Part shown: positions 6,653 through 57,767 of the stretch, piece after piece | Layout of the letters: every line of letters starts with the position of its first letter | Numbering within the stretch: position 1 is the stretch's first letter | Source: a virus | Direction: 5' to 3' (one strand) | Virus record (IMG/VR): IMGVR_UViG_3300025133_009446 | Coordinates: 11,428 to 75,427 of that record | DNA: 64,000 nt | The notes under the pieces: model-generated | Told to the model about the DNA's origin: nothing | Seen by the model: only the letters and a program-made list of their open reading frames with translations | Databases searched by the model: none | Made by a program: the position numbers and the translations under genes

Positions 6653-8463
6653 TATTGCACAACCCCTTGTATGTCCGATGAACCAAATCTAATTTCAAAA
6701 ATAGAATCATCTGGAATGGCAATGTACCTCCCAGAAGCATCAGTGTTCTCCTTAATATTAAATGGTATATCAGAGTACGTGACGCCAACTTTATGACTTA
6801 CTCTAACATCCATGGTGTCTTCTACTCCTGTTGTCGCATTTAATATTTGATATATTTTAGCTATAGAAAACGGTTCCCCAAGTTCAAACGTAAACCTATA
6901 TTGAGTTCTAAGACTTCTTAAACAATTTATTAATACTTCTTCTTTTGTATGCTCTAAAGAACCTTGCACGTAAAAATCAACTCCAATATTGATTATATTG
7001 GCATCTAATATATCAATTGTATCATTTATCATTTTATAATTATTTAACCACATTTTTAAATTTTCTTTTATAACATTATTAGTTGCAACTAAATTTCCTG
7101 CGCTTCCCTCAGACACAACATATAGATTCAAGTTTCTTTTAAAAGAATCATGATCTTGTTTAATGCTACAGCGCTTAATAGCGCCAAATTGTGGTGGCAT
7201 CATGTATACTATGGTTTGGTAATCTTGTTTTGTTACAGCTCTATTTTGTACAGCATATGTGTCTATCACTCTACGCCGAACCTCTTCTGAAGACGGGTAT
7301 GTGACGTCACCAACTATTGGTTCATCGTTCGTTACTTCAATGTTGTTTCTAACAATTGTGGTGTTTGAACCTTCAACTGCGGCACGTGGAAATTTTAAAA
7401 AAACTCGATCAACATTTGTAATTGCGCCCACGCCAGCATTAACAGAATCGCTTGTATTGAGTCTATATGTTATCGTCAGTGTGGTGTTTGATGGAGCAAT
7501 CCCAAATTTATCATTTTCCAACAATCGATTAGGATCAAATGATGCTTCTGTCACATAATTTCTAAAAGATCTGTTTAAAACAACATCGCTTGGATCAAAC
7601 ATGCTAGCATCAGTTATTTCATTATCAGAGCCATATCCAAATTGAAGAAAGGTTTTGAACCCCTCTTGCTCAACAACAAACCTTCTAGCAACCGCTCTTG
7701 GCTTAAGCAACACCTCTGGTTCGCTAGAGCTTTGTTTAGCCAGGTTTAAAGTAGGGACATAAATAATATTTTGAGATAAATGCTCCACTTCGTGGTATTC
7801 GTGCCCTTCTTGATCGATGACAGATAATATTTCAGCAATATTATGAGAAGCTATTGTTGCTCTAAAAAATCTCTGGTAGTTTCCGACGCTCACAGTAGTC
7901 GCGAGTACTTTACCAGAAACAACTTGTCCGTATGCCCGAATAGCATAAGTCGTGGGTTTTCCAGTTTTATTATCAACAGTGGCGACAACAACCTCATTGC
8001 TTGGATTTAAAAAATTCACATCCTCATTTAGTAAAAAAGCCGCACCAGTAGAACTTGAGAAAGAAGTGCCTCGCTTCATAGTAGGAACATAATCCACATT
8101 TACACCTATGCCATTCGAATTGGCTGGGACTACAACATAAATTGTTGCCGTACCATAAGAAGATGGACGTCCTTTAAATTTATAGCCAAGCTGTCTACCC
8201 AACCTAATAACGTTATTGAATTCAACAGCGGAATCAATAAAAGATTCATTGACTTGATAGTCTAAATAAAAAGAAAGCATATCCCCTATATATGCAACAC
8301 TATCCAGCATTAAAGAACCAAAAGAGGCTTCATTAAAGTCTTTATAAGTGTCTGGGTAGTATCTTTGTGCGTGAGAAATTAATTCCTTTTTAATCGATGC
8401 AAAATCTCTGCTTGTATATTTTATTGGCACATTTTTAATTTGCCGGCTTTTTCTAGGTGACAT
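6652..8463 (-). CDS. Baseplate wedge subunit (T4 gp6 / baseplate J-like)
   Basis: N-terminal YTSRDFASIKKELI...YKDFNEASFGSLMLDSVAYIGDMLSFYLDYQVNESF and QNRAVTKQDY are gp6-family hallmarks. Confidence 0.9.
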   Translation of the reverse strand: MSPRKSRQIKNVPIKYTSRDFASIKKELISHAQRYYPDTYKDFNEASFGSLMLDSVAYIGDMLSFYLDYQVNESFIDSAVEFNNVIRLGRQLGYKFKGRPSSYGTATIYVVVPANSNGIGVNVDYVPTMKRGTSFSSSTGAAFLLNEDVNFLNPSNEVVVATVDNKTGKPTTYAIRAYGQVVSGKVLATTVSVGNYQRFFRATIASHNIAEILSVIDQEGHEYHEVEHLSQNIIYVPTLNLAKQSSSEPEVLLKPRAVARRFVVEQEGFKTFLQFGYGSDNEITDASMFDPSDVVLNRSFRNYVTEASFDPNRLLENDKFGIAPSNTTLTITYRLNTSDSVNAGVGAITNVDRVFLKFPRAAVEGSNTTIVRNNIEVTNDEPIVGDVTYPSSEEVRRRVIDTYAVQNRAVTKQDYQTIVYMMPPQFGAIKRCSIKQDHDSFKRNLNLYVVSEGSAGNLVATNNVIKENLKMWLNNYKMINDTIDILDANIINIGVDFYVQGSLEHTKEEVLINCLRSLRTQYRFTFELGEPFSIAKIYQILNATTGVEDTMDVRVSHKVGVTYSDIPFNIKENTDASGRYIAIPDDSIFEIRFGSSDIQGVVQ

Positions 8464-23690: not shown

Positions 23691-23930
23691 TTATTCCGAT
23701 TGGGTGTCAACAGTGTCAAAATCAAATGATTGCTGTTGCAAATTCTCTTCAAACTCATCATTAAACTTAACCAATGGCGGGTTCATAACTACCAGCCCCT
23801 GATCCGAGGTTCTAAATCTGAACTCTTTTAAAACAGGAACAATATCACTTTGCTCCATTAAGCTTTTCTGCAGAGCCATCATAACAGCCCCCACAGCCTG
23901 ATCTGACATGTTTACTTCTCTATCGCTCAT
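23691..23930 (-). CDS. Hypothetical protein
   Basis: Start moved to the ATG at 23930 (MSDREVN), which follows SD GGAG. Confidence 0.7.
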   Translation of the reverse strand: MSDREVNMSDQAVGAVMMALQKSLMEQSDIVPVLKEFRFRTSDQGLVVMNPPLVKFNDEFEENLQQQSFDFDTVDTQSE

Positions 23931-24789
23931 TAATTTCTCCTTCTTTGCTAATGGCTCTACCTTCAAGCGCTTCCCAATCTCTTTCTGGGCGTACTTCCAA
24001 GTTTTTATTCCACGCAGCTTTTAATACCGCCGGATTTATATTTAGATTCTCTGCATATTTTATCATCGCATTTAAATCCTTTGGAAAGCACGAACCACCA
24101 AAACCAAACTTACCATCTGGACCTGGAACAGAAAAATGGGATCTACCTAAACGCTTGTCATATAAACCATATTCTACTATCTTATCATAGTCTACATTAA
24201 TTTTTTCACATATTTGTTTGATTTCATTAGAAAAACTAACTTTGGTTGCAAGAAAACAATTGGTAAAATATTTCACCATCTCAGCTGTATTTGAACCAGT
24301 TTTCACCAATGTCGTTTCTGGAAATGCTTTTCTATAAAGATTTTTTACTTTTGTTGATGCTGGTCTAGGTCCACCAATTATAATTCTTGTTTGATTTTTA
24401 AAATCTTCAACAAAATTTGCTTCAGTTAAAAATTCAGGATTAAAAATAACTTTCAAATTATTGCACTCTTGGTTAAACTTTTCAGTTGTCCCAGGAGGGA
24501 CTGTAGATTTAATCACTGCAATATTGTCGTTATTATAACTATCCAACTTCATTATTGTGTCTGTTACAATAGATAAATCACATACACCATTTCGCTTCAT
24601 CGGTGTTGGAAGGCATATAAAAATTATACCAGCTTGTTGACTTAGTTGTTGCAAAGATGTACATGTTGATGCGCGTGCTTTGAACTTGTCATACGTATCA
24701 ACATGTACACCACGGACACCCTTAAACCCTTCGTACACAGCTGTGCCAACAAAACCCTGTCCAACTATACCAATATTAGTTTTTCTCAT
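23920..24789 (-). CDS. ugd: UDP-glucose/GDP-mannose 6-dehydrogenase family (short form)
   Basis: GQGFVG Rossmann motif, FICLPTP, IKSTVPPGTT, FNPEFL, AEMVKY, and catalytic GFGGSCFPKD; lacks the usual C-terminal domain. Confidence 0.88.
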   Translation of the reverse strand: MRKTNIGIVGQGFVGTAVYEGFKGVRGVHVDTYDKFKARASTCTSLQQLSQQAGIIFICLPTPMKRNGVCDLSIVTDTIMKLDSYNNDNIAVIKSTVPPGTTEKFNQECNNLKVIFNPEFLTEANFVEDFKNQTRIIIGGPRPASTKVKNLYRKAFPETTLVKTGSNTAEMVKYFTNCFLATKVSFSNEIKQICEKINVDYDKIVEYGLYDKRLGRSHFSVPGPDGKFGFGGSCFPKDLNAMIKYAENLNINPAVLKAAWNKNLEVRPERDWEALEGRAISKEGEINER

Positions 24790-25674
24790 TTAAAATTCCC
24801 AAAACAACTTTTTAAAACATCTATCAACACCAGCTTCTGCACCGATTTCCGCCTTCCAACCTAAGTCTTGCAAAGGTAAAACATCTGCTAACGTTACCAT
24901 GACATCGCCCTGTCTTTCTTCTATATACTCAAATGCAATATCGGTGAAGTATTTTTGAACAATATCCTTCACTTCATTTAAAGAAATATTGTCGCCAGTT
25001 CCAACATCAAAATGCGCTCCATTGAATTTATCGTCGCGCTCCATTGCAAATATGTTTGCACTGATAGCATCAGAAACGTGCAACATATCTCTTCGTTGTT
25101 CTCCGGTACCTGTAATAAAGGGAGTCTTGCCTTTTCGAATATATTTCATCCAATTCGCAATTGCAGTAGCATATGGACCATCTGCTTCCTGATCTTCCGA
25201 ATAAACATTAAAATAACGCAAACTAACAGTATCAATTCCATAAAGCTCTGAATAAAGCTTGCACTCCATTTCACTAACTAGCTTTTGTAACCCATATGGG
25301 TTTGTTGGTCCATCTCCATCGCCAACAACTGATGAAGAACTAGAATATATTACACGCTTTGCGCCAACATGTTTTGCAAAATTAAGTATATTACTTGTAC
25401 ATAAAACATTATTTTCCATTGTTCGAACAGGGTTTTCCACACTATATGTTACCCTGGGAAAGCACGCTAAGTGAAAAATATATTCAGGCTTGAAATTAAA
25501 ATAATGTGGGTGAAAATCTCCACGCATTGGTTCATTGTATTCGCGAAGATCTTTATTAATATCATGCCCCTCAAATAAATCAATTCCTTGCACTTCGTGT
25601 CCCAATTCTTGTAATGTTTCATACAAATGGGAACCAATGTATCCTCTATGTCCTGTTACTAAGCATCTAGCCAT
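24790..25674 (-). CDS. NAD-dependent nucleotide-sugar epimerase/dehydratase (extended SDR)
   Basis: VTGHRGYIG, YSSSSS, YGLQK, LRYFNVY, GEQRRD. Confidence 0.9.
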   Translation of the reverse strand: MARCLVTGHRGYIGSHLYETLQELGHEVQGIDLFEGHDINKDLREYNEPMRGDFHPHYFNFKPEYIFHLACFPRVTYSVENPVRTMENNVLCTSNILNFAKHVGAKRVIYSSSSSVVGDGDGPTNPYGLQKLVSEMECKLYSELYGIDTVSLRYFNVYSEDQEADGPYATAIANWMKYIRKGKTPFITGTGEQRRDMLHVSDAISANIFAMERDDKFNGAHFDVGTGDNISLNEVKDIVQKYFTDIAFEYIEERQGDVMVTLADVLPLQDLGWKAEIGAEAGVDRCFKKLFWEF

Positions 25675-26507
25675 TTTTCTTCTCCTCCTTCAAAAAATTG
25701 TGGTGGCATATCCCAAAATTGTTTCGCGCTTTTAAGTCTGTTTTCTTGCAACACTACCTCATTGTTCAAAATATATTTCTCATAATCTATAATTGGGTAT
25801 ACATCTAAGTAAGTTTTTAGCGATGCATTGTAAAACTTTGTATCTCTGCCTCTCTCTATGAAATTCTTTAATGCTAAAGAATGTACATTTCTCATCTGAT
25901 GATTGATTTTATAAAGCTTTTCATGAGGAATATCTGCTCGATATGATTTGTCAAAATGATTTGGATCACTTTCGCTACCTCTATCGCCAGTCCAACCCAA
26001 ATCTGCTCCAACAATCACAACCTCACTAAAACCCATGTGGTATGTTAATTGTAAAGCTAGATTCATTGTCGTGCCGGTTTTATCTATCCGTTCGACAATA
26101 TCTGTAGAAAAACATGTTTCTGATATTCTACCATCCATGGGCGGTTTCCTCTCACTCATAGAATCAAACCAATTAATATGCGGGTAATCATCATTTGAAT
26201 CAATTGTGGGCTTAAACATTTTTGCAATAAAAGACGTCGTGTCTGATTCTTTCACAGCGTTACGAACAGAGCCTGTCCACGCCCTGCCCCACTCTGGGTG
26301 TCTAACATTAGTAGACGAAAACAAATAATACGTAGGCTTCCATTCTGGGTTTTTATCATATATAAGAGATATACGATTCATAGCAATTGTATTTTCATTC
26401 TTAAGAAGGTTTAAATTCGTATTCGCCAAGCTTGGTCCATTGGCAATAAGAAATACTCTTTCGCCTTTATGTAAGTCCTTATACTTATCAAATACAGCAT
26501 TTTTCAT
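25659..26507 (-). CDS. DUF115/MAF-like (sialyltransferase-fold) glycosyltransferase
   Basis: FLIANGPSL, IAMNRI, ALQLTYHMGFSEVVIVGAD, DPNHFDKSY, FYNAS; start moved to MKNAVF. Confidence 0.75.
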   Translation of the reverse strand: MKNAVFDKYKDLHKGERVFLIANGPSLANTNLNLLKNENTIAMNRISLIYDKNPEWKPTYYLFSSTNVRHPEWGRAWTGSVRNAVKESDTTSFIAKMFKPTIDSNDDYPHINWFDSMSERKPPMDGRISETCFSTDIVERIDKTGTTMNLALQLTYHMGFSEVVIVGADLGWTGDRGSESDPNHFDKSYRADIPHEKLYKINHQMRNVHSLALKNFIERGRDTKFYNASLKTYLDVYPIIDYEKYILNNEVVLQENRLKSAKQFWDMPPQFFEGGEEKWLDA

Positions 26508-26511
26508 GATA

Positions 26512-27198
26512 TTATTTTTCCCTTGAAGAAACAAGAATTGTTCTTTTATAATTTAAATGACTTTCATCATTATAAAATGTATTGTTATTGAATCCTAATT
26601 CTTTCATTCTATTATTAACATATGTTTGTGTTGGAATTGAGTGAAGTTTATTATATTTATTAGATTTACTTTTATGTCCCCCAGAGACACAAAGATCATC
26701 TAACGAATCGTATGTTTTAAACTCTAAGATTAATAAATTTGAAAGTTTAGACATTTTTTGTAAACATTGTAGCACGTTTGGTATTCTATGTAATAATCCC
26801 AACCCTAAAATCATATCATAATTTTTGTTTTCTTTTAACTCATATAAATCCCCGACTTCAAATTGGACATTATCAAGCTTAAATATTTGTTTTATGAAAT
26901 TCGCCCTTTCGATTCTCAATGGATCTGGATCTATTCCAACAACTTGCATATCATAATCCATTGCGCATTTTACAGAATAATAACCGTCGCTGCATCCAAT
27001 GTCCAAAGCTTTTTTTCCTTTTAAATTTAACTTATCTATTATTGGATTTAATCTAGCCCATTTGTTGATATTGTACCCCGGACTATTAATATCGGTTTTT
27101 CTTGTTTTTATTAAACCTGGGAGATTATATTGATGATTCCAATCTTCCTTTTTGGATAAATCTGAGACTTTCTGTTGTATCCATTTATGATATTCCAT
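26512..27198 (-). CDS. Class I SAM-dependent methyltransferase
   Basis: ALDIGCSDGYYS, VVGID, YDMILGLGLLH. Confidence 0.88.
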   Translation of the reverse strand: MEYHKWIQQKVSDLSKKEDWNHQYNLPGLIKTRKTDINSPGYNINKWARLNPIIDKLNLKGKKALDIGCSDGYYSVKCAMDYDMQVVGIDPDPLRIERANFIKQIFKLDNVQFEVGDLYELKENKNYDMILGLGLLHRIPNVLQCLQKMSKLSNLLILEFKTYDSLDDLCVSGGHKSKSNKYNKLHSIPTQTYVNNRMKELGFNNNTFYNDESHLNYKRTILVSSREK

Positions 27199-30518: not shown

Positions 30519-31445
30519 TTATACAATCCCGGCAATTCTCAATTGCTCCATACAAGAATTCCAATTAGTAAAACGGAACCCTTTATCATCAATATATGCC
30601 ACCGCTCTTGGCTTTTCGGCTGTAACCTTTGTTACAAGCTTATCCATATCATATTTCTTAAGCCATTCCCACACCAACTCTATACCAGTTTTACCATCTA
30701 CCAAACCGCGATCAGGCTTTGCTTTACAGGTATACATGATAACATTGTATTTTTCAGACAACGCTTGCAAAGCCTCTCTAGAGCCAGGAACTGGTTCATC
30801 ATAAATTGTTCCGTCATAGTACCCTTTTGAGCACTTATGAATCACACCGTCGAAGTCGATGCCGATTTGATAAGTTTCGTCATCATTAGAGTGAAGACGA
30901 GGGCTCGCGGGTTGTTCATTCGGAACGGTCTTTATCATTGGTGATTCGAACCCTGAAGCGTTCATTAATCGATGAAAAAGCATGATGGTCAGCACTTCAG
31001 AAGAATAATAATGTGTTGCACCTGTTGATACTTCTATGCTACCCCATTCATTGTTGACCGATTGAGATGTAATGTAACATGTATCACATCCGGTTGATGC
31101 TGCAAATATCAAGGCAGCATCAACATCGGGTGATGCTCCGGATGATGACACGCCGATGACTAACGGCATTTTATTCGAATTAGAAAGTCGAGGTCTGAGC
31201 CATTCTATCAGCCACTTTTGATAATCAAAATCGCCATGCCAGATAGAAACTGTATCAGTATCTGGAGCACATATTAATTTCTTGCCTCCAGTGAGCCTTG
31301 TAAGATCTGTAGCTATGTGTCGGCAAATCGACAAATTTCCGCCATGACATGCCAAGTATACTTCGCTGTGTCTTTCGAATAATTTTTCAATATCTTTCCA
31401 CTCATCCGAGAGAATTGTTTTTTCATATAGATGTTCTACATTCAT
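30519..31445 (-). CDS. SIS-domain phosphosugar isomerase (GmhA-like) fused to a HAD-like phosphatase
   Basis: N-half HGGN...HIATDL...IGVSSSGASPDV; C-half IGIDFDGVIH...YT...KP...YIDDKG. Confidence 0.75.
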   Translation of the reverse strand: MNVEHLYEKTILSDEWKDIEKLFERHSEVYLACHGGNLSICRHIATDLTRLTGGKKLICAPDTDTVSIWHGDFDYQKWLIEWLRPRLSNSNKMPLVIGVSSSGASPDVDAALIFAASTGCDTCYITSQSVNNEWGSIEVSTGATHYYSSEVLTIMLFHRLMNASGFESPMIKTVPNEQPASPRLHSNDDETYQIGIDFDGVIHKCSKGYYDGTIYDEPVPGSREALQALSEKYNVIMYTCKAKPDRGLVDGKTGIELVWEWLKKYDMDKLVTKVTAEKPRAVAYIDDKGFRFTNWNSCMEQLRIAGIV

Positions 31446-32335
31446 TGTTTGCTCTCTTTTCTCTTGTCGCTAATCTCTCCTAGACAACCCACAAGACCAA
31501 GCCCAATATCAATATACTCTGATGCTAACATTTTTTTAGGAATATCTTCGCCATATTTATACGGAGTAGTTTGATAATGTGAAGTAATCAGACTTTTATT
31601 TTTGCTTTGATTATATTTTATTTCCACATCTTTATTCATTATTTCAGATATAATTGTTAATATTCCTGATGTTCGAAACGATCGTTCGCCTGTAAGGATC
31701 ATACAACGATTTTTATATTTAGAGCCTAAAGACTTTATAGTTAAGTCTGCTGCATCAGACGCATGAATATAATCGCGGCGTTCGCACCCTGTCCCTTGAT
31801 ATGTTATTTTACCATCAAGGGCTTGATCTAAAAATCTATAAACACTGTTGTTTTTATCTGCGCCTGGACCGTAAATTGTTCCATATCTTAATATTGTATA
31901 GTTAAGATTATAATACTTCTTATAGTCTTTTGTAAGAGACTCACAGACATTTTTTGTAGAGCGATAAACTCCTCCTAAACCAGACTCAGAATAAACACTA
32001 CTAGCCAAGACAAATCTATTTACTTTAGCTTTTGCACACTCATCTAAAATAATTGTGTTACCCAAAATATTTGTTTCTACTGCTTTAACTGGATCATCAA
32101 TACATGCTTCAATATCTGCAATTGCTGCATAATTAAAAACTATATGCGCGTCTTTTACGATACTTCTAACATCTTCCCTGTTAAGAACATTTCCTACTAT
32201 TGAATACTTCTTTTTTAGATCTGGTGAAGGAGCTTGATCAAATGAGTAGACAACATATTTGTTTTCCCTTATCAGTCTTCGTACTGTATATCTTCCAAGA
32301 AAGCCGGCGCCGCCAAATACAACTACTTTTTTCAT
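31442..32335 (-). CDS. NAD-dependent epimerase/dehydratase (extended SDR)
   Basis: FGGAGFLG, ASS, YRSTK, LRYGTIYGPG, RDYIH. Confidence 0.9.
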   Translation of the reverse strand: MKKVVVFGGAGFLGRYTVRRLIRENKYVVYSFDQAPSPDLKKKYSIVGNVLNREDVRSIVKDAHIVFNYAAIADIEACIDDPVKAVETNILGNTIILDECAKAKVNRFVLASSVYSESGLGGVYRSTKNVCESLTKDYKKYYNLNYTILRYGTIYGPGADKNNSVYRFLDQALDGKITYQGTGCERRDYIHASDAADLTIKSLGSKYKNRCMILTGERSFRTSGILTIISEIMNKDVEIKYNQSKNKSLITSHYQTTPYKYGEDIPKKMLASEYIDIGLGLVGCLGEISDKRKESKQ

Positions 32336-33330
32336 TATATAACCCTGTTAATCATATCTCTTGATTCAAGATAGTTGTTAACTGATTTTGCTGCGCCTAC
32401 TTCCATTTCAAGCCTACTAATTTTTGAGCAACTCCCGAGATGAGGTGACATCAGAATATTATTAAGAGACAATAGATTTCCATCATAGGGTTCTTTTTCA
32501 AAAACGTCAATTGATGCAGATGCGTCACTATTTTTTGTTAGCCAATCGTACAAAGCAGCTTCATCAACTATGCCGGCGCGAGACGTGTTAATTATGCATG
32601 CATTTTTCTTGAGCAATGATAGCTCTTTTGTTCCGATGTAACCTATGTTAGCTTCATTTAGTGGGATGTGCAAAGAGACGATATCGCACTCCGCTAAAAT
32701 TCTATTTTTAGATGACCACTCGTATGAGGGAAATATTGCTCTAGATGAATCAGTGTCTGTGTACAATATTCTTTTTGGCTGTAGCGACTCCAGCTTTCTT
32801 AAGACTGATGTTCCTATTCTTCCAACCCCTATAATACCAATAGTACAGCTTGACAATTCTCTTCCGATAATTCGGGACCACCTGCCAGCCTTCATTTCAG
32901 AATCAACAATCCATGTTTTTCTTAGTAATGATATTATTTGCCCTATTGTTAACTCTGCGACTGCATTAGTAGGAGCATCTGGTGTATACGTTACACATAT
33001 TCCTCTCTTTTTACATTCATCTAAATCAACAGAATCTAGACCAATTCCTACTCTGGATATCATCCTAAGATTTGGGCATGCGTCTAAAATGCTGACGTCA
33101 TATTTTTCAGTTCCGGCAACAATAATTTCAGGCCGTTTATTCTGAAGTACTTGCAAAAGCTCTTCTCGCGAGTATTTTCTTCCCGTTTCATTGTACGAGA
33201 CTTTCATATTATTGTCTAGACACAGACGTTCCAACAATTCTCGGGGATCGCTATTTTTTGACCCATACGGAAATGTCGTAACAACAATGTTTGACAATTT
33301 TTTGTCATCAATATTTTCAAAATCAAGCAT
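32335..33330 (-). CDS. D-isomer-specific 2-hydroxyacid dehydrogenase (SerA-like, no ACT domain)
   Basis: SRVGIGLDSVD, AVAE, GIIGVGRIG, SLHIP, INTSR, DVFEKEP, SPHLG; start moved to MLDF (33330). Confidence 0.88.
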   Translation of the reverse strand: MLDFENIDDKKLSNIVVTTFPYGSKNSDPRELLERLCLDNNMKVSYNETGRKYSREELLQVLQNKRPEIIVAGTEKYDVSILDACPNLRMISRVGIGLDSVDLDECKKRGICVTYTPDAPTNAVAELTIGQIISLLRKTWIVDSEMKAGRWSRIIGRELSSCTIGIIGVGRIGTSVLRKLESLQPKRILYTDTDSSRAIFPSYEWSSKNRILAECDIVSLHIPLNEANIGYIGTKELSLLKKNACIINTSRAGIVDEAALYDWLTKNSDASASIDVFEKEPYDGNLLSLNNILMSPHLGSCSKISRLEMEVGAAKSVNNYLESRDMINRVI

Positions 33331-34033
33331 TTTGCATTTCTTTATATGATTCAATTAAGGCAGTTGTATCCATACCCACTGCAATTATACCATAGTCATC
33401 ATATTTTTTAATCTCTTTTTTAACATCTTTCGGAATGTGAACTGCCATTTTTTTGATTGATACCATATTTTTTACCTTTTCTACCGCTTCTAGATACAAA
33501 GAGTTATTAAATTGTCCAGGTATACCAAGACTAGTAGACAAGTCATAAGGACCAATCATGTAAAAGTCAAAACCCTTAATGTCGCCAATGTTTTCAACAC
33601 CCCTTCTAGTTTCAATTTGAGCAACTATTATGGGCGGTTTTGCTATTAAAGCTTTATTATTTCCCCACTTGTTTTGTCTAACTAGTCCTAAGCCACGTCT
33701 ACTAGAGGTTGCGTAACCTTCTTTACCATAAGCTACTGGGTATTTGCAATATTCATGAATTTGTTCGGCTTGTTTTCTAGTTTCTACTGTTGAAAAAATT
33801 AACCCAGTTGCCCCAGCATCTAAACAATATTTAACCATGTGTAGATCTAGATTTCCTAGTCGAACAAAGCACTGTTTATTGTTGGCTGTGACTATTTGTA
33901 TACAGCTATATAACGTTTCATTATTAAAGCAACCGTGTTCAGTGTCGATTACAACACCATCTAATTTATTTTGACAAAGTATATCAGATACAACAGTTGA
34001 TGGTATTTGCTGCCATGCCAATCTCCTTACCAC
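33323..34033 (-). CDS. HpcH/HpaI-family pyruvate aldolase (2-keto-3-deoxy-acid aldolase)
   Basis: VIDTEHG, FVR, LDAGATG, AQIET, IGPYDLSTSLG. Confidence 0.88.
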   Translation of the reverse strand: MVRRLAWQQIPSTVVSDILCQNKLDGVVIDTEHGCFNNETLYSCIQIVTANNKQCFVRLGNLDLHMVKYCLDAGATGLIFSTVETRKQAEQIHEYCKYPVAYGKEGYATSSRRGLGLVRQNKWGNNKALIAKPPIIVAQIETRRGVENIGDIKGFDFYMIGPYDLSTSLGIPGQFNNSLYLEAVEKVKNMVSIKKMAVHIPKDVKKEIKKYDDYGIIAVGMDTTALIESYKEMQNA

Positions 34034-34719
34034 TATAAAAATCTCCTATATTTTTTTGTTTTGGTGCTGCTTTGTATTACGTTCACAAATTCCCAATCAT
34101 CTTCAGTATCGATATCTAAGCTCTCCAAAAAACTTGTAGGATAAAAATATGGATTTTTACCAATTCTATTTCCACTATTTAACACAATGTCGGAATAGAA
34201 CATATAAAATAAAGAGTTCTCTTCATAATATACTGGTAGATCTTGTGTCTGTTGCAGAATCATTGGATTGTGATTGACGGGGCACACACCGTATTCCTCT
34301 TTCCTCCAAAATCTTTTTTGAGTTGATATGCAAGAGGTGATAGAATCATATCCTTCATCAAACTTTTTCGCCGCTGCAGTTAGCGTTGCGACACCTAAAA
34401 ACGGAGAAGTGACGTGAATCTGGCATATTATATCGTTTTCTACACTTTGTTGTTCATGAACAATGAAGTGTTTAATTAACTTACACACAGAAGTATTATG
34501 ATCGACAAGCGCTGAGCTTCTTTTATAAGCAGTAACATGTGATAGGTTTTTATCTTTTTTTACTTCCTTGATGATTTCTTCACTGTCTGTGTCAACATAT
34601 ACTTCAAAATCTTTTAGTTTATAAAGCGTATGTTTATATAACGGCAAATTTGCAAATAATCTAAAGTTCTTTTTTGGCACCCGTTGTGATTGCTCTTTTA
34701 TTGGAATAAAAATTTTCAT
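34033..34719 (-). CDS. Acylneuraminate/ulosonate cytidylyltransferase (NeuA/KdsB-like)
   Basis: IPIKEQSQRVPKKNFR, VDTDS, HVTSPF, TQDL...YEENS, DIDTEDDW. Confidence 0.9.
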   Translation of the reverse strand: MKIFIPIKEQSQRVPKKNFRLFANLPLYKHTLYKLKDFEVYVDTDSEEIIKEVKKDKNLSHVTAYKRSSALVDHNTSVCKLIKHFIVHEQQSVENDIICQIHVTSPFLGVATLTAAAKKFDEGYDSITSCISTQKRFWRKEEYGVCPVNHNPMILQQTQDLPVYYEENSLFYMFYSDIVLNSGNRIGKNPYFYPTSFLESLDIDTEDDWEFVNVIQSSTKTKKYRRFL

Positions 34720-35465
34720 TTTATAGCATCACTAAAAAGCTTCTTGTCGAGCTTTTCTAAATTTAAAATCACATCTAATACACTGTCTAATTTAACAGAA
34801 GGGTTGTCTCTCAAAGTATCTTTAGCATATTGCCATATGTTTTTTTGTACATGTCTCTTTGAGTTAAATGCCATCGTAGCAAATTCATCTTCTGTTACGT
34901 TTTTTTCTTTTTCAACACCAGACTTACAGCCGGGTATAAAACCATCCAAATAAAAACTAAATCCATATATTGACAACATGCTTGGATTAAAATTTAATAA
35001 GTCATATATTGCAAGAAATCCAGTATTTGGTCTACATTGAACCTTTTTTGCCAATTCTGTATGCATCTGATGATCAACAATTCTAAGTGGTAATACTTTA
35101 ATTATATGTTTAACAGTTTTCATATTAACCATCTCATGAAACGTTGTTCTTTGGGAGATCCCTTTATAATCAGATTGTGGAGGGGCGCACACGAACTTAA
35201 CACCATAATCATTTTTTAACTCAAGAACGTCTAACTTCCCAGCATTTTGTGCTGTTTCTATCAAACAAGAATATAAAACATCGGTTTTTACCCCCACATC
35301 AGCTGAATATTGTTTAGTGGTTTCAATGCTTCTATTGATTCTAACAACCACGTCATGTTGATCAATTTCTTCACCCAAACAAGAGCCAACCATATATTTT
35401 GCTGGACCGACCAAAGCAACTGTTTTTCCGTGTATAATGCTTTTAAAAAGAGAATTATCAATCAT
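34716..35465 (-). CDS. GT29-like (sialylmotif) glycosyltransferase
   Basis: Sialylmotif L-like VALVGPA...GEEIDQHDVVVRIN...DVGVKT; S-like RPNTGFLAI...LSIYGF; a His near the C-terminus. Confidence 0.75.
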   Translation of the reverse strand: MIDNSLFKSIIHGKTVALVGPAKYMVGSCLGEEIDQHDVVVRINRSIETTKQYSADVGVKTDVLYSCLIETAQNAGKLDVLELKNDYGVKFVCAPPQSDYKGISQRTTFHEMVNMKTVKHIIKVLPLRIVDHQMHTELAKKVQCRPNTGFLAIYDLLNFNPSMLSIYGFSFYLDGFIPGCKSGVEKEKNVTEDEFATMAFNSKRHVQKNIWQYAKDTLRDNPSVKLDSVLDVILNLEKLDKKLFSDAIK

Positions 35466-36043
35466 TTTCTTTTTTTAAATATCCCAACCTTATTTTCAAC
35501 AATGTTATAAAGATTCTCTTTGCCAAAAAAATGACTAGCATATTTCTCTTCAATAAGCCGACCCATATCATCAACTACGCAAATACCATTATTCTTTAAA
35601 AGATAGTGTGCCGTATAAATGCTTTGCATCCTACCTGGACCTTTATATGGTCTAGGGGGGTTGTGTCCAAGAGGTCCGTCGACAAGAATCATATCCCACT
35701 CTATACTAGTAACTTCGTCTGGAAGCTTCATTTTAAGCTTCTCGATATCAAACCCAATATCAGCATGCTCTTGTGCTTTAGTATCGTACTTCACTGGATG
35801 TATTTTAATATTGACGTCTGGATCTTTAAATTTTTCAATCCATTCTAAATCATCCTCCAGAAACACAGTCTTGCCGCCAGCATTTATCTGCTCCCAAATA
35901 TAAGAGTCCTCTCCTAATCCGAAAACTAAAAAATTACATGGAGACAATAAGTCCAAAACGTAACCAACATTCATATATTGAGTCTGAGACATTAATCCCT
36001 TACCAGAAGCTTTCATATCTTTTATAAGCGTTTTAAAATTCAT
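35462..36043 (-). CDS. DUF579 / Polysacc_synt_4 (plant GXM/IRX15-like) polysaccharide O-methyltransferase
   Basis: PCNFLVFGLG...W..IN.GG.TVFLEDD..WI and EWDMILVDGP.G...PGRMQSIYTA match the recalled plant DUF579 consensus. Confidence 0.8.
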   Translation of the reverse strand: MNFKTLIKDMKASGKGLMSQTQYMNVGYVLDLLSPCNFLVFGLGEDSYIWEQINAGGKTVFLEDDLEWIEKFKDPDVNIKIHPVKYDTKAQEHADIGFDIEKLKMKLPDEVTSIEWDMILVDGPLGHNPPRPYKGPGRMQSIYTAHYLLKNNGICVVDDMGRLIEEKYASHFFGKENLYNIVENKVGIFKKRK

Positions 36044-36044
36044 C

Positions 36045-36788
36045 CTAATATTCCATAAAGTTCTCTTTGCAAATTTTTAACGCTTCATCAAGCGATTCAA
36101 TTTCATATGTACCTTTGTTTATTCGTGGATCAGCATGCATGTGGTATATTCTTGGCGCAAGATGTTCTTCTCCAAACTCATGATGAAAAATATGTTGTTT
36201 TTCTCTATTCGCCTTACTTCTAATATTATATTCTACAGGGAAAACATAGAACTGTAACCCCTCTTGAATGGCTTTCCAAAGAGAAATTCTGAATGAAGCC
36301 TGATCCCAAGGACAATAATGCCGATAATGGTAAAAACACTCTCTCCAATCCTTAAAAAGCTTTAAGACTTTTTCGTTTTTCTTGAATACGAGCACGCCAG
36401 TATTAATTTCAGAAAACGCATAAGGAATATTTCTATACTCAGGCATGACAGTTGAATATTTCTTTCTTTTTCTCGCCAAATCATGAGTGCCGGCAAAATC
36501 AACGTTGTCTAGCAACTCAAACAGATCCTCTATGTTGCGATCAACTATAGTGTCTGTATCTAAAAACAACGTCTGCTCATAGGGAGTTAAAGCTATATAA
36601 TCTATTTTAGGACGCAAATGAGCGACTTTAATTATCTTAACCTCATCAATATACTCAGACTCAATCTGTTTATCTATAAACGCAGTTATGTGTAAGTCTG
36701 GATTATGTTTTTTAACAGACTCTGCAGAGAACAACATCTCTTTAATAAAATGCTTACCAAAAGCAATATACAATACACCTTTATTCAT
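36045..36788 (-). CDS. Glycosyltransferase, GT-A (GT8/GT77-like)
   Basis: TPYEQTLFLDTD, EINTGV, WDQASFR, EYN, H. Confidence 0.8.
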   Translation of the reverse strand: MNKGVLYIAFGKHFIKEMLFSAESVKKHNPDLHITAFIDKQIESEYIDEVKIIKVAHLRPKIDYIALTPYEQTLFLDTDTIVDRNIEDLFELLDNVDFAGTHDLARKRKKYSTVMPEYRNIPYAFSEINTGVLVFKKNEKVLKLFKDWRECFYHYRHYCPWDQASFRISLWKAIQEGLQFYVFPVEYNIRSKANREKQHIFHHEFGEEHLAPRIYHMHADPRINKGTYEIESLDEALKICKENFMEY

Positions 36789-37776
36789 AACTTATCCCCA
36801 ATATGTCATTATACAATTTAGAAGCCCATGCATATGGACTATATAATTTATCAAATTCTCTCTTTGCGCGATCTGCCATTTTTTGCCTTAATCTAAAGTC
36901 TTGTAACTTTAATATACCTTTTTTCCAGCCTTCGTAGTTGTTTGCAATAATCCCGCATTCAGGATCACCCATAATATGAAAATTACTAGGAGTAAAATCA
37001 GCAATCACAGGGATCCCCAATTGATGGAAAACAAAAGCCCTACCTGCATTAGATTTGTTTTTCATTCTCACTATAAAATCCGTGTTATATAAACCAAGAT
37101 CTGTAGAGGTTTTATGCTTGCTTAAGTCCAATGGTATATGAGTCACATTGGGAACAATACCAATATCGCAACTTAACAAATCTTGTTTTATGGTTTTAAT
37201 GTTCCACGGTTTCATAATAATGTTTTCAATATTTGGTTTTCCAACCTTCCATTTAAATGATGTGTTGGACGTCACAACAAACAATTCTATATCACACGCT
37301 TTGTTAACCTCTTCTATAGCTCTTTTAAGATTAGGCGCAAACTTGCTTAAATGCGGATAATGTCCATGAAAACCTATCCTTAACCTAGATTTCTTAGAAT
37401 GAGTTTTATAGTCATCGCCTTGATACATTTTTTCAATCAAAGGAAAAAGGAACACATTCTTATAATGAGATAAACTATCCATCTCTTCTATGGAGCCAAC
37501 AATTACAAAGTCTATTGGTAGGTTTCTAGCGTCGGCTGCCAAATTTATAACACCCACTTTCTTATTTGGATATGCTTTCTTAATGCCAATGGCAGTTGCA
37601 ACATCGTTTTTGCCGCAGATAACAACATCATAATCTAATACATCTGTCTTATTGGTTGCTATCTCAGATTGATATCCACAATCACGAAAATAATCATTTA
37701 AATCATTAACCCAAATTCTATAAGAACCAACGCTAATATCACGGTTGTTGGAAACAAACAAAACTTTCATAATCAT
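36781..37776 (-). CDS. Glycosyltransferase, GT-B (GT4-like)
   Basis: GSYRIW, IGFHG, CDIGIVP, KSNAGR, LGIPVIA. Confidence 0.75.
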   Translation of the reverse strand: MIMKVLFVSNNRDISVGSYRIWVNDLNDYFRDCGYQSEIATNKTDVLDYDVVICGKNDVATAIGIKKAYPNKKVGVINLAADARNLPIDFVIVGSIEEMDSLSHYKNVFLFPLIEKMYQGDDYKTHSKKSRLRIGFHGHYPHLSKFAPNLKRAIEEVNKACDIELFVVTSNTSFKWKVGKPNIENIIMKPWNIKTIKQDLLSCDIGIVPNVTHIPLDLSKHKTSTDLGLYNTDFIVRMKNKSNAGRAFVFHQLGIPVIADFTPSNFHIMGDPECGIIANNYEGWKKGILKLQDFRLRQKMADRAKREFDKLYSPYAWASKLYNDILGISYE

Positions 37777-38829: not shown

Positions 38830-39785
38830 CCTTTGTAGATTTTTAATGCCCAAAAGGCAGGATTTTCTATCTCTTTTTGCAGATCTGTTAATAACGCAGC
38901 GTGCAGCAATTCTCTATATTGTTCAGGATTAGAATTTCTTTTATCCCCCAAATTATCTAAATATATTGGCTTTGTAATGTAGTCAAAGTGCAATTTATTA
39001 GAAGCCTCTCCGCATATTTTATATAATTCTACATCACAATCACTAAACAAGTCAACTATTTTATTTATTGCAAAATCTCCATATTGTCTATATCCGTGCA
39101 AAAGGTATAAATCAAGAGAAGCTGGACCTGGGAAAAGGTGCACTTGTATACAAGGCTCGTCCTTTTGATACATAAACTTCTTTAACTGCTTAAATGTACC
39201 TAAATCGTTTTTTATATGTTCAATCGCAGACTGAGACATGAGAAAGTTTATATTTGTTGGGATATCAAATATTGCATCACTATCTAGATTTGCCTGTTCG
39301 AAGCTTACATTAATATCCTTTTCCTTACCCCAGCTAATGTTGTCATGCCACTTAGGAGATTGATATATATCCAAGCCCTTATATGAAGTTATAATGCCAT
39401 TAGACCAATTCTGCAGTTTCTTGCAATACCCACCGGTACCGCAACCAATATCCAATATATTGACTTCTCCTAAATTTTTCTTTATATCACCCCAAGGCAA
39501 GTTCATCCAAAACATGTCACCCATAGCTCTGCTAGGTGATGGGGTACCCTTTATTTTGTTCCAAAAATTATTAAATTTTTCTTTTTCTAAAGTAAAGTCT
39601 GTGCTCAACAATTTATCTGTTAGCAATTTGTTGCTTATATGATTCCACAACAAATACAAAGTTTTTTCTGTTGAAGATAGTGAAGGACTATCTCCATTTA
39701 TAGAGTGAATGGATGTCGACATGTCATCCTGTAGTCCGACACTATAATTTTCAATTAAAAAATTAAAATTGTTATATTCTTTCAT
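38826..39785 (-). CDS. Class I SAM-dependent methyltransferase
   Basis: ILDIGCGTG, GLD, SQSAIEHI. Confidence 0.85.
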   Translation of the reverse strand: MKEYNNFNFLIENYSVGLQDDMSTSIHSINGDSPSLSSTEKTLYLLWNHISNKLLTDKLLSTDFTLEKEKFNNFWNKIKGTPSPSRAMGDMFWMNLPWGDIKKNLGEVNILDIGCGTGGYCKKLQNWSNGIITSYKGLDIYQSPKWHDNISWGKEKDINVSFEQANLDSDAIFDIPTNINFLMSQSAIEHIKNDLGTFKQLKKFMYQKDEPCIQVHLFPGPASLDLYLLHGYRQYGDFAINKIVDLFSDCDVELYKICGEASNKLHFDYITKPIYLDNLGDKRNSNPEQYRELLHAALLTDLQKEIENPAFWALKIYKG

Positions 39786-44772: not shown

Positions 44773-45218
44773 TATCCACCTTCTTGTGTATTAGTATTCT
44801 TTGGATCCAGTGTAACTGTTGTTTTTTCATTTGTCAATGTTTTTTTTGCGCTGGTGCGTGTGCGGGTTGCTACAGTTTTTCTAGTGGCTTTTCTAGTGGT
44901 TTTTCTAGTGGTTTTTCTAGGAGCATTTACAGTGCGAGTTGTATTTTCATTGTGTCCTTTGGTTGTCCACACCCACTGCCCTGTTTGACTATTCGGTTGG
45001 TGGCTATTAACCTTGGAAGTGCCTGATATTAATCGTTCAGCTTCAATACCTGCACCTAAAAGCACCCTTCTGACTGTTGATGCATCAATTTCTATTCGCT
45101 TGCTAGCGCTTTTAGCTCCATCATTATATTTAATATTAGCAGTAACCGTTACCGTGCCAGCTTTTTTATCCACTGTCCATTTTAAATAACTATCATATTT
45201 TCCTTGTTTATAGCTCAT
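44772..45218 (-). CDS. Basic hypothetical protein with a histone-like RKTT tail
   Basis: 148 aa; PRKTTRKTTRKATRKT. Confidence 0.65.
   Translation of the reverse strand: MSYKQGKYDSYLKWTVDKKAGTVTVTANIKYNDGAKSASKRIEIDASTVRRVLLGAGIEAERLISGTSKVNSHQPNSQTGQWVWTTKGHNENTTRTVNAPRKTTRKTTRKATRKTVATRTRTSAKKTLTNEKTTVTLDPKNTNTQEGG
44875..44920. repeat. 12-bp coding tandem repeat (~4 copies)
   Basis: ttttctagtgg(c/t) repeated, encoding RKTT/RKAT. Confidence 0.8.
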
Positions 45219-45892
45219 GTAAGATCTCCTATATTTTCTAATTTATTATATACCGTGGGACTTAGCTTTTTCACTAATTGTCTGTTATATAAGTAGTAAT
45301 GTTCAAAGCAATTAGCAAAATACTCTCGCAAGCTAGTGGCGCCATATGGAGACACAAACAAACCAGAAGTAAAGCTTTGTAATATATTATACCCAATTTC
45401 ACGATACAACAGCTCATCAAACTTTTCTGAATATTCAGTATTATAAAAGTCTGTCAAATTTACTTTATACCCTTCATAATCTAATATTTGATATAGTCTT
45501 TTTCTTTTCCCAAGAAATTCCAACTCTATAACGTTATCTCCATATAGATCTTCTCCATATATTTCTTCGGCTGAATGAGCGATTTCATGTACAATATCAT
45601 TAACCATGTCATTCGCGTCATCTTGCGCGTTTGAAACATAAATTGCGCCATCTTTATAGGCAGCGTTGGTTTGATTTTGAACAAATATATCAAAATGTCC
45701 GACATATATCGCATCTATTAAATAAAAGAAGTGCTTCGGTACCGTTTCTTCAATTTTTTTCAGCACTACTTCTATATCAACAGTTTCCGGAAGATCGTCC
45801 TTAAGAAAAACTAATATGTTGTTAAATAAAAATTTTTCTTTCCTTTCTCTTAAAGCTTTAATAGCAGATTTTTTAATATAATCTATTCTCAT
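45215..45892 (-). CDS. Zincin-like metallopeptidase (lethal-factor/ATLF-like)
   Basis: VHEIAHS plus YGATSLREYFA. Confidence 0.7.
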   Translation of the reverse strand: MRIDYIKKSAIKALRERKEKFLFNNILVFLKDDLPETVDIEVVLKKIEETVPKHFFYLIDAIYVGHFDIFVQNQTNAAYKDGAIYVSNAQDDANDMVNDIVHEIAHSAEEIYGEDLYGDNVIELEFLGKRKRLYQILDYEGYKVNLTDFYNTEYSEKFDELLYREIGYNILQSFTSGLFVSPYGATSLREYFANCFEHYYLYNRQLVKKLSPTVYNKLENIGDLT

Positions 45893-49233: not shown

Positions 49234-49250
49234 ATGATCTCCTATATCAG

Positions 49251-49564
49251 TGGAAGTGTCGGGAGTCGAACCCGAGTCCGAAAAACCTCAAAAACAACGT
49301 CATTCACAAGATTAGTCAGTTATTTGAACTCTGACAAACTCAAACCCTGCATGCGCGTACCACCAGTTTTGTGACTTTCTTGAAAAACTGGAAAGCTGCC
49401 TAGCTTCCTTAATGGAGTGCTAGAAACTCCAAATTACGCAGCTAAGGCGTAATCAAGTTCAACATTATCGTTGGCTTTTATAAAAATTGAGTATTTTTAC
49501 TGTGCTACCCACACAGCCTTGCACGTTTATTTTATCCATTCTCCGTCGAAACCTTTTCACCCCC
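49251..49564 (-). ncRNA. ssrA: tmRNA
   Basis: 5' GGGGGTGAAAAGGTTTCGAC; 3' GACTCGGGTTCGACTCCCGACACTTCCA. The acceptor stem has a G3:U pair and discriminator A; CCA is not encoded. The internal tag frame 49475-49434 reads ANDNVELDYALAA-stop. Confidence 0.95.
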
Positions 49565-56700: not shown

Positions 56701-57714
56701 TTAAATTTTATCTTTATGTTCTGAAAAATAAACGCTCTTTATTTCATTCCAACCAAATTTATGTTCTGGCTCGATAGCTTGAAGGATAAAGCGTTTAAAA
56801 TCATCTTTATTTTGAAAGAACTTTTTGTGTGCCTTATCAAAAAGAACCCACCGCCGCACTTCTTCTAAAACGTCCATTTTATTTATGACAAGATGAGTAA
56901 CGCCATTAATATTAATAGCTTTCTTAAGAAAATCTATATTCATCCAATTAACTTGTCTTTTACGTCCGGTTGTTGCGCCAAACTCTTCACCCACTCTTTG
57001 TATCTTATTAAATATTTCACCTGCAGGTTGAAATTGTTTTGCACCGACATAAGTTTCATATGCTTTTGCAACACCCCAAACATTGCGGATTGCTTGAGGT
57101 GGAACACCGTTCATTACAGCTGCACCTGAAATACAATTAGAAGAAGTGACATAAGGATAATCGCCCCAATCAACATCCAAACCAAACCCTTGCGCGCCTT
57201 CAAATAATATTTTTACTGTACTATCTTTTGTATGTAACTCTTTATATAGATCGATTAAATAAGGACGAAGCTCTGGGACATCTTCTGCTCTAACGCCCGT
57301 TCTATTATATTTGTCACGATATGCTGGACCATTTCCACGTTTAGTGGTGCCGATTGAAGTGTCTTTCTCATCTTCTTTTAGGTGTTCTCCTGTGATGACG
57401 TGGGCGTTTTTTGCGATGTAGATGAGTCCTTCTGTTCTAATATCTCCTCTTTCGAGTTCGTGTATTTCTCTAAAAAATTGTTCAGGATATACAACGCAAC
57501 CAGAACCAATGATAGATTTAATACCGAAAAAAACACCAGCAGGGATATGATGAGTAATATATTGCCTTCCATGGTGATAAATAGTGTGCCCCGCATTACA
57601 CCCACCATTATATCGTATGACATGAGTATAGTCCCCGTTTCTGCATAAGTGGTGTGTTACCTTGCCTTTGCCACAATCTCCGTATTGAAGATCGACAACA
57701 ACATCTGCTAACAT
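56701..57714 (-). CDS. purA: Adenylosuccinate synthetase (short form)
   Basis: QYGDCGKGK, GGCNAGHT, IGTTKRGNGPAY, FEGAQG, YPYVTSS, GATTGRKR, NKMDVL; SD GGAGG before ATG 57714. Confidence 0.93.
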   Translation of the reverse strand: MLADVVVDLQYGDCGKGKVTHHLCRNGDYTHVIRYNGGCNAGHTIYHHGRQYITHHIPAGVFFGIKSIIGSGCVVYPEQFFREIHELERGDIRTEGLIYIAKNAHVITGEHLKEDEKDTSIGTTKRGNGPAYRDKYNRTGVRAEDVPELRPYLIDLYKELHTKDSTVKILFEGAQGFGLDVDWGDYPYVTSSNCISGAAVMNGVPPQAIRNVWGVAKAYETYVGAKQFQPAGEIFNKIQRVGEEFGATTGRKRQVNWMNIDFLKKAININGVTHLVINKMDVLEEVRRWVLFDKAHKKFFQNKDDFKRFILQAIEPEHKFGWNEIKSVYFSEHKDKI

Positions 57715-57767
57715 AAAAACCTCCAAGTTAATATGATCATATTACTATATTTTAGATTAAACGTTTA

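Follow-up and report, generated by a model that had tools for sequence, protein, structure and literature searches.

We propose that a DUF579 gene of a tailed phage encodes a soluble O-methyltransferase that depends on S-adenosylmethionine (SAM), acts on a sugar of a glycan and is partnered with a GT29-like enzyme; we give this reading as a whole a probability of roughly 0.55. The gene lies at 35462-36043 on the minus strand of a 64,000-nucleotide stretch (the window), positions 11,428 to 75,427 of the IMG/VR record IMGVR_UViG_3300025133_009446. The window makes up the final 64 kb of this 75.4-kb viral record, whose estimated completeness is ~42%, and nearly every gene in it is on the minus strand. 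PHROG matches in the window to baseplate wedge proteins and PhoH confirmed that the record stems from a tailed phage. To our knowledge, work on DUF579 has been confined to plants, where it is a Golgi family methylating glucuronic acid (GlcA) on xylan and arabinogalactan, and we found no paper that connects DUF579 or 'glucuronoxylan 4-O-methyltransferase' with phages or viruses.

The first-pass annotation had recognised the gene from four motifs in its product and had named a Pfam search as the check. The feature in question is:

35462-36043, minus strand: DUF579 (PF21729) protein of 193 residues, predicted from Pfam, AlphaFold2/Foldseek and its invariant residues to be a soluble class I SAM-dependent methyltransferase

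All four motifs, PCNFLVFGLG, NAGGKTVFLEDDLEW, EWDMILVDGPLG and PGRMQSIYTA, were found in this open reading frame, which begins with ATG. The protein matched PF21729 (IRX15_IRX15L_GXM) with E=2.1e-34 and 119.2 bits (cut-off 27.8), and a six-frame search of the contig likewise scored this family above the cut-off. We are therefore dealing with a genuine PF21729 member and not with a generic class I methyltransferase. The absence of an N-terminal transmembrane anchor, also claimed at first sight, was borne out by Kyte-Doolittle analysis, in which three plant controls showed theirs.

When 127 DUF579 members from phages, bacteria and plants were aligned, thirteen positions proved to be 99-100% conserved (F41, G42, G44, D46, W50, N54, E63, D122, P124, R138, D159, R162 and E165), and the phage protein retains every one of them. 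F41, G42, G44 and D46 belong to the glycine-rich loop after strand 1, E63 stands at the end of strand 2, and D122 and P124 are located after strand 4; R138 is part of a PGR motif, and D159, R162 and E165 of a D..R..E motif. By analogy with the general layout of class I methyltransferases, we infer that these residues would serve the binding of the SAM ribose, a metal and the substrate.

A sequence search of the PDB found no relative whose structure has been solved. An AlphaFold2 model built on 22 homologues had a pLDDT of 91.9 and a pTM of 0.89 and displayed the alternating order of strands and helices of a Rossmann methyltransferase. Foldseek found 190 matches to this model in the PDB at E<=1e-3, with SAM methyltransferases dominating among the matches listed. 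The highest TM-scores, 0.63-0.64, belonged to SpnH, a rhamnosyl 4'-O-methyltransferase, followed in the ranking by MnmM, TrmR and CCoAOMT-like O-methyltransferases. The resemblance to the SpnH, MycE-type and CCoAOMT-like enzymes (4cdz, 5i10, 3ssn, 3ntv), several of which act on sugar hydroxyls, is that of a class I Rossmann fold and concerns the global fold only (TM-scores 0.54-0.64); their sequence identity to the phage protein is 10-16%, and they belong to a different Pfam family. A fold search of BFVD yielded generic methyltransferases only, and the PHROGs hold no family for the DUF579 protein or its three neighbours. The gene very probably encodes an active glycan O-methyltransferase.

A non-catalytic role has to be weighed at this point. 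The protein might be a scaffold that organises a glycosyltransferase complex, as suggested for plant IRX15 and IRX15L, for which no enzymatic activity is known (PMC6508755); its close linkage to glycosyltransferases and the fusions described below would fit this as well. We consider such a role quite improbable, as phage, bacterial and plant members alike retain the glycines of the SAM motif, the acidic residues and two invariant arginines. Moreover, since the surrounding gene island already has three other methyltransferases, catalysis is the simpler explanation of an additional conserved methyltransferase fold.

The evidence for the GT29-like partner comes from the arrangement of the genes, for which the following features matter:

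23920-44002, minus strand: co-oriented glycan-biosynthesis island of ~20 kb that holds the DUF579 module (Pfam, Kyte-Doolittle)
34716-35465, minus strand: GT29-like glycosyltransferase (sialyl/Kdo-transferase family), 249 residues (Pfam PF00777, E=1.8e-12)
36045-36788, minus strand: GT8-like / Nucleotid_trans-like glycosyltransferase, 247 residues (PF03407, 26.7 bits, above cut-off)
36781-37776, minus strand: unannotated protein of 331 residues, conserved as part of the module (without a match in Pfam, PHROG or NCBIfam)
34033-34719, minus strand: CMP-sugar (ulosonic/nonulosonic acid) cytidylyltransferase (Pfam CTP_transf_3, E=4.8e-14)
33323-34033, minus strand: HpcH/HpaI-type class II pyruvate aldolase (Pfam PF03328, E=4.2e-18; syntenic)
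32335-33354, minus strand: D-2-hydroxyacid dehydrogenase family protein (Pfam 2-Hacid_dh_C, E=5e-44)
31442-32335, minus strand: NAD-dependent sugar epimerase/dehydratase of the short-chain dehydrogenase/reductase type (Pfam Epimerase, E=1.6e-34)
30519-31445, minus strand: protein of 308 residues with a weakly SIS-like N-terminal half (Pfam SIS, E=0.0073, below cut-off; no NCBIfam match)
23920-24789, minus strand: short nucleotide-sugar dehydrogenase-family protein, 289 residues (Pfam N-terminal and central domains only)

The GT29-like gene lies downstream of the DUF579 gene, and the two overlap in an ATGA that holds the start of the former and the stop of the latter; we propose that the two genes are translationally coupled. 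Its product scored 47.7 bits with PF00777, against a cut-off of 23, and covers profile positions 56-215 of 272. On the upstream side, a single nucleotide separates the end of the GT8-like gene from the DUF579 start. The neighbourhood of DUF579 and GT29-like genes that had first drawn attention to the locus is thus real, and it is situated within a sugar-biosynthesis island. This island comprises about ten glycosyltransferase domains (GT2, GT4, GT8-like, GT29-like and MptE/Maf-like), four methyltransferases including DUF579, and sugar-nucleotide enzymes. Kyte-Doolittle analysis predicted no transmembrane segment in 24 island proteins, with plant controls positive. For the unannotated protein of 331 residues, ESM Atlas features scored 0.95-0.97 to Glyco_trans_1_2 clusters; this is a lead only, on which the protein is probably a GT-B glycosyltransferase.

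We then compared the island proteins by tblastn with all fetched DUF579 loci. Thirteen viral loci (L003-L006, L008-L015; DUF579 identity 46-64%) share a module composed of the GT-B-like, GT8-like, DUF579, GT29-like, cytidylyltransferase and HpcH aldolase genes, with a local gene order that differs between two subgroups of the thirteen. The arrangement was found in none of 79 prokaryote loci. One of the viral loci (L009) is part of IMGVR_UViG_3300007512_001664, a relative that is complete at 200,819 bp, has direct terminal repeats, carries the same module and is the best reference for this phage lineage.

The link between DUF579 and GT29 extends to single polypeptides. Three protein clusters of the phage clade are DUF579-GT29 fusions (P0057, 324 residues; P0121, 442 residues; P0435, 340 residues), and at least 11 long contigs carry both families, as deduced from equal lengths of the longest contig in the two match lists. 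Because of the gene overlap and these fusions, DUF579 is tied most closely to the proposed ulosonate branch of the island. Seen family-wide, the partners are more varied. In 38 long DUF579 proteins the additional domains were almost all glycosyltransferases or further methyltransferases: GT4 (9), GT2 (4), Methyltransf_24 (4) and GT77-like Nucleotid_trans (3), with GT8, GT29, GT32, TOD1/MUCI70 and PLOD-GT once each and TPR repeats in some. Examples are GT2+DUF579 (P0131), GT4+DUF579 (L074) and DUF579+GT32 (L060); tandem DUF579 repeats occur as well (P0122, P0123). A viral protein of 907 residues (L042:6588-9311, IMGVR_UViG_3300048024_000800) combines GT47/RXYLT1-like, GT8, DUF579 and GT34/GT77-like domains in one chain. 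As read from its domains, it is a four-domain glycan assembly line built from families best known from plant cell-wall synthesis. As far as domain composition can tell, such a pattern of fusions marks DUF579 as a domain that tailors glycans and has diverse acceptors. Fused to so many unrelated glycosyltransferase families, DUF579 probably has diverse specificities, and the plant 4-O-methyl-GlcA specificity is therefore not transferable to the phage enzyme by homology alone.

Aldolases of the HpcH family join pyruvate and aldehydes to 4-hydroxy-2-oxo (3-deoxy-2-ulosonic) acids, and GT29 enzymes use CMP-sugars. We propose that the HpcH aldolase, a candidate synthase of a 3-deoxy-2-ulosonic acid, and the cytidylyltransferase would make a CMP-activated 3-deoxy-2-ulosonic acid, Kdo- or sialic-like. 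The GT29-like enzyme, the closest working partner of the DUF579 protein, would transfer this acid onto a glycan that the phage's own glycosyltransferases would assemble in the host cytoplasm. DUF579 would then methylate a sugar hydroxyl after transfer of that sugar onto the glycan, and the methylated residue would be the acidic sugar transferred by the GT29-like enzyme or its immediate neighbour. In keeping with a glycan-tailoring domain, the plant GXM enzymes methylate polymer-bound (xylan-attached) GlcA only, not UDP-GlcA or free GlcA; they were active when produced in E. coli (PMC3921138). Among the plant GT29 proteins, one is a putative CMP-Kdo transferase (PMC11288761), and in prasinophytes expansions of GT29 accompany Kdo-rich scales (PMC13213038). 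The phage partner gene belongs to the same family as the plant enzyme, RCKT1/MGP2, putatively the CMP-Kdo transferase of rhamnogalacturonan II, and as the prasinophyte proteins, and its position beside a CMP-sugar synthetase gene is consistent with ulosonic-acid transfer. Unlike the plant and prasinophyte GT29 proteins, the phage protein of 249 residues is soluble and falls into a large marine viral or metagenomic group; more than 250 close clusters of it were found in marine metagenomes.

As to the sugar, we lean towards an acidic one, ulosonic or uronic. Narrowing it down to the ulosonic acid transferred by the GT29-like enzyme is possible, and we do so tentatively; GlcA added by the GT8-like enzyme is an unlikely substrate, and the remainder falls to some other sugar.

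The GlcA hypothesis, which goes back to the first-pass annotation, deserves a closer look. It would make the protein a GXM/AGM-like glucuronic-acid 4-O-methyltransferase acting on GlcA that the GT8-like enzyme attaches from UDP-GlcA supplied by the dehydrogenase of the island, and would mirror the plant pair of GUX (GT8) and GXM. It draws on the GT8-like gene, which was found directly beside DUF579 in 13 of 13 syntenic viral loci, on fusions of DUF579 to GT8 or GT8-like regions in the unrelated viral protein L042 and in Okeania (L087, L096), and on a gene of the nucleotide-sugar dehydrogenase family, present in the island as well as in L007, L008 and L018. Furthermore, 4-O-methylation of GlcA is the sole characterised DUF579 activity (PMC6508755, PMC3921138). 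The score of the GT8-like protein with the GT8 family PF01501, however, was marginal, just below the cut-off (23.1 against 24.3 bits), and the phage protein falls outside the plant GXM/AGM clade. GT8 was the partner in only one of the 38 fusions, for which reason the fusion partner does not define specificity.

The dehydrogenase is a further difficulty for GlcA. The gene at 23920-24789 had been taken for a UDP-glucose dehydrogenase. Its assignment to the nucleotide-sugar dehydrogenase family stands, with 200 bits for TIGR03026 against a cut-off of 189.8, and the GGxCFPKD motif with the catalytic cysteine can be read in its sequence. The C-terminal UDP-binding domain is absent, however, and the protein scored far below the cut-off of every UDP-glucose dehydrogenase equivalog, so that the more specific name did not survive. 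A short form of 282 residues is likewise conserved at L007:5427-6263 and L018:3671-4507, with 51% identity and the same C-terminal end, and these two-domain proteins of 282-289 residues may constitute a distinct subfamily. Taken together, a methylated uronic-acid glycan is plausible and less favoured than a methylated ulosonic acid. The tightest coupling within the phage clade, that to GT29, speaks for an ulosonic acid with no less force than for GlcA.

We also considered that the island might hypermodify the phage DNA with a methylated glycan, or that DUF579 methylates a small molecule. The island is all-soluble and without lipid-carrier or export genes, as would be expected in this case, and phage glycosyltransferases that build mono- to trisaccharides on 5-hydroxymethylcytosine are often encoded near structural genes (bioRxiv 10.1101/2023.12.21.572611). 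A hint at DNA base chemistry came from a gene at 56701-57726 (minus strand), whose product of 341 residues matches PHROG 1211, a PurZ-type adenylosuccinate-synthetase homologue, with E=3.4e-69; this may be an ordinary PurA-like enzyme, or it may belong to a pathway for 2-aminoadenine (Z-base) DNA. Nevertheless, no gene of the ThyA/dCMP-hydroxymethylase type or for a C5-cytosine methyltransferase was found in five records, namely this one and four relatives including the complete 200.8-kb genome, with controls positive, and about ten glycosyltransferase domains plus a CMP-ulosonate branch far exceed the known DNA-glycan systems. We regard this possibility as highly unlikely.

For the glycan made by the ulosonate-linked module, the leading guess for the acceptor is a virion protein, glycosylated in the cytoplasm. 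This guess follows from the lack of genes for lipid-carrier priming or a flippase in the lineage: families of the Bac_transf, WecA-type priming or Wzx kind were detected neither in this record nor in four relatives, one of them the complete 200.8-kb genome, with controls positive.

Several points weigh against our favoured reading of an O-methyltransferase partnered with the GT29-like enzyme. All biochemical data on DUF579 come from plant proteins, and two plant members, IRX15 and IRX15L, are without demonstrated activity (PMC6508755). The NCBIfam matches of the aldolase (HpaI, GarL and KDR aldolase) and of the cytidylyltransferase (best PseF, 6e-22, with KdsB weaker) were all below, and indeed far below, the equivalog cut-offs. 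DUF579 also always adjoins the GT8-like gene in the 13 loci, and in L007 and L018, both cut by contig ends, it stands beside different neighbours. With respect to the acceptor, the phage could use host export machinery, and no striking Ser/Thr-rich acceptor tracts were seen in the adjacent large virion proteins. Finally, there was no RNA run among the matches listed for a 2-kb stretch around the gene.

Other genes of the island are of interest in their own right. The D-2-hydroxyacid dehydrogenase gene occupies this position only in the window, and a homologue is found elsewhere in the module in L009-L015. In the protein of 308 residues, which is syntenic in L003-L006, a C-terminal DxDG motif was read as HAD-like from sequence only. 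An MptE-like protein of the DUF115/Maf type at 25659-26534 (minus strand) scored 37.1 bits against a cut-off of 34.6 and is 57-70% conserved in related loci. Maf proteins are candidate nonulosonic-acid transferases, and for this reason the island may hold a second step of ulosonate transfer.

The first-pass annotation had called the gene plant-type. This label found no support: the DUF579 family is broadly prokaryotic and viral, with the land plants as one long-branched offshoot. A HMMER search of 1.84 billion representatives returned 1,116 DUF579 clusters (50% identity) at E<=1e-3, and a scan with one genome per species found the family in the 79 prokaryote loci. Its carriers include Cyanobacteriota (Okeania, Arthrospira, Lyngbya), Alphaproteobacteria (Afipia, Devosia, Hyphomicrobium), Patescibacteria, Planctomycetota, Bacteroidota, Acidobacteriota, Thermoactinomyces and one archaeon. 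In IMG/VR, an alignment-based scan detected 46 viral loci, and a single-sequence pattern scan gave none. Among 50,697 deposited phage records, tblastn with the window protein and with DUF579 proteins of two other viral clades found no match, nor did a megablast of the 12-kb region against deposited phage genomes, a collection from which records very close to this genome may be absent. The JGI pipeline automatically labels some of the metagenome proteins 'glucuronoxylan 4-O-methyltransferase'.

Maximum-likelihood trees were calculated for a 127-row set and for a careful 56-row subset. In both, the window protein belonged to a clade made up of viral contigs and marine-metagenome proteins only (SH-aLRT 98 in the 127-row set, 100/99 in the 56-row subset), and the viral sequences as a whole fell into no fewer than four distinct clades. 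The nearest relatives outside the clade of the window protein were all metagenome proteins. Fifteen plant GXM, AGM and IRX15 sequences formed their own clade (100/100, stem 0.8) amid prokaryotic lineages, with the phage protein outside. Since the plants are monophyletic without the phage clade, a recent transfer from plant to phage is ruled out. The backbone of the trees was poorly resolved, and a sister grouping of phage and plant sequences was absent from the maximum-likelihood trees. However, a tree forcing the phage clade and the plants together was not rejected by the approximately unbiased test on the 56-row subset (delta lnL 3.8, p=0.413), with which a deep sister relationship would be compatible.

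Compared with plant GXM1-3 and AGM1/2, the Golgi GlcA 4-O-methyltransferases, the phage protein thus shares the PF21729 family, the invariant core and the predicted chemistry, SAM-dependent O-methylation of a glycan-bound sugar. It differs from them in being soluble, without the transmembrane anchor and without the plant-specific 18-residue insert that contains cysteine, in scoring below the cut-off of the plant domain TIGR01627 (113.9 against 149.85 bits), in its position outside the plant clade and in the GT29-like enzyme and the CMP-sugar pathway to which it is coupled. The bacterial DUF579 proteins, for instance those of Arthrospira, Okeania, Afipia, Thermoactinomyces and Patescibacteria, are of the same family with 30-46% identity, and are often soluble with ~190-230 residues or fused to glycosyltransferases or other methyltransferase domains. 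The phage clade is nonetheless separate from them (support 98-100), with no sequence from a prokaryote genome within it, and the bacterial loci, unlike the phage loci, are devoid of GT29-like, cytidylyltransferase and HpcH neighbours. The suggestion that the pair of GT29 and DUF579 genes bears on the origin of these families also lost most of its force, as GT29 had already been described from bacteria and proposed to have originated there (PMC5811610), and the phage clade is no demonstrable link to plants. By titles and abstracts, we found no literature linking GT29 to phage gene clusters.

The 2-kb stretch with the GT29-like, DUF579 and GT8-like genes was present in 24 DNA runs from 21 studies, with 40-100% of the sampled words, and 23 of the 24 runs were labelled marine metagenome. 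The baseplate wedge protein at 6652-8463 is only ~30% identical to its best deposited relatives, which are Microcystis phage Mel-JY01 and the Flavobacterium 'immuto' phages. Its best cultured-phage matches thus include Flavobacterium phages, and a close homologue of the GT29-like protein (P0419) is filed under a metagenome-assembled genome of Flavobacteriaceae; both give a weak hint at a marine member of the Flavobacteriaceae as host. A cyanophage identity was rejected, as no psbA was present in five related records including one complete genome. The phage also encodes its own transfer-messenger RNA at 49248-49564 (minus strand; Rfam RF00023, full length, 108.5 bits, gathering score 47), whose tag peptide according to ARAGORN is ANDNVELDYALAA and might be a clue to the host lineage.

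Two further observations concern the annotation of the window. A protein of 225 residues at 45215-45892 (minus strand) matched the zinc-metallopeptidase-like Pfam families ATLF (25.8 bits, cut-off 27.4) and Peptidase_M90 (24.5 bits, cut-off 26.2) below threshold, and is probably a small metalloprotease-like protein. The tRNA-Tyr called by ARAGORN at 39671-39755 on the plus strand, with the unusual anticodon ATA, lies opposite the coding strand within methyltransferase and GT2 genes and is probably a false positive.

In conclusion, a marine phage lineage keeps a minimal, soluble DUF579 protein of 193 residues wired to a GT29-like transferase, which corrects the picture of a plant gene in a phage. 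The protein offers an easy-to-express model for a family without a solved structure, and the module is a concrete handle on the products of the large glycosylation islands of marine phages. Should the substrate be an ulosonic acid, the chemistry of the family would be extended and linked to the GT29 Kdo-transferases of plants and prasinophyte algae, and the DUF579-GT29-aldolase module could be the new part. A bolder version, which we find doubtful, would have the viral DUF579 clade as an ulosonic-acid O-methyltransferase, a specificity that would be new to the family. With GT29, and sometimes fused to it in one protein, it would form the final unit of an aldolase-based CMP-ulosonate pathway independent of NeuB/KdsA that serves to coat virions. 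If true, DUF579 and GT29 would be an ancient prokaryotic or viral toolkit predating its use in the wall and scale polymers of plants and green algae, and this widespread lineage of marine phages would coat its virions with methylated acidic sugars.

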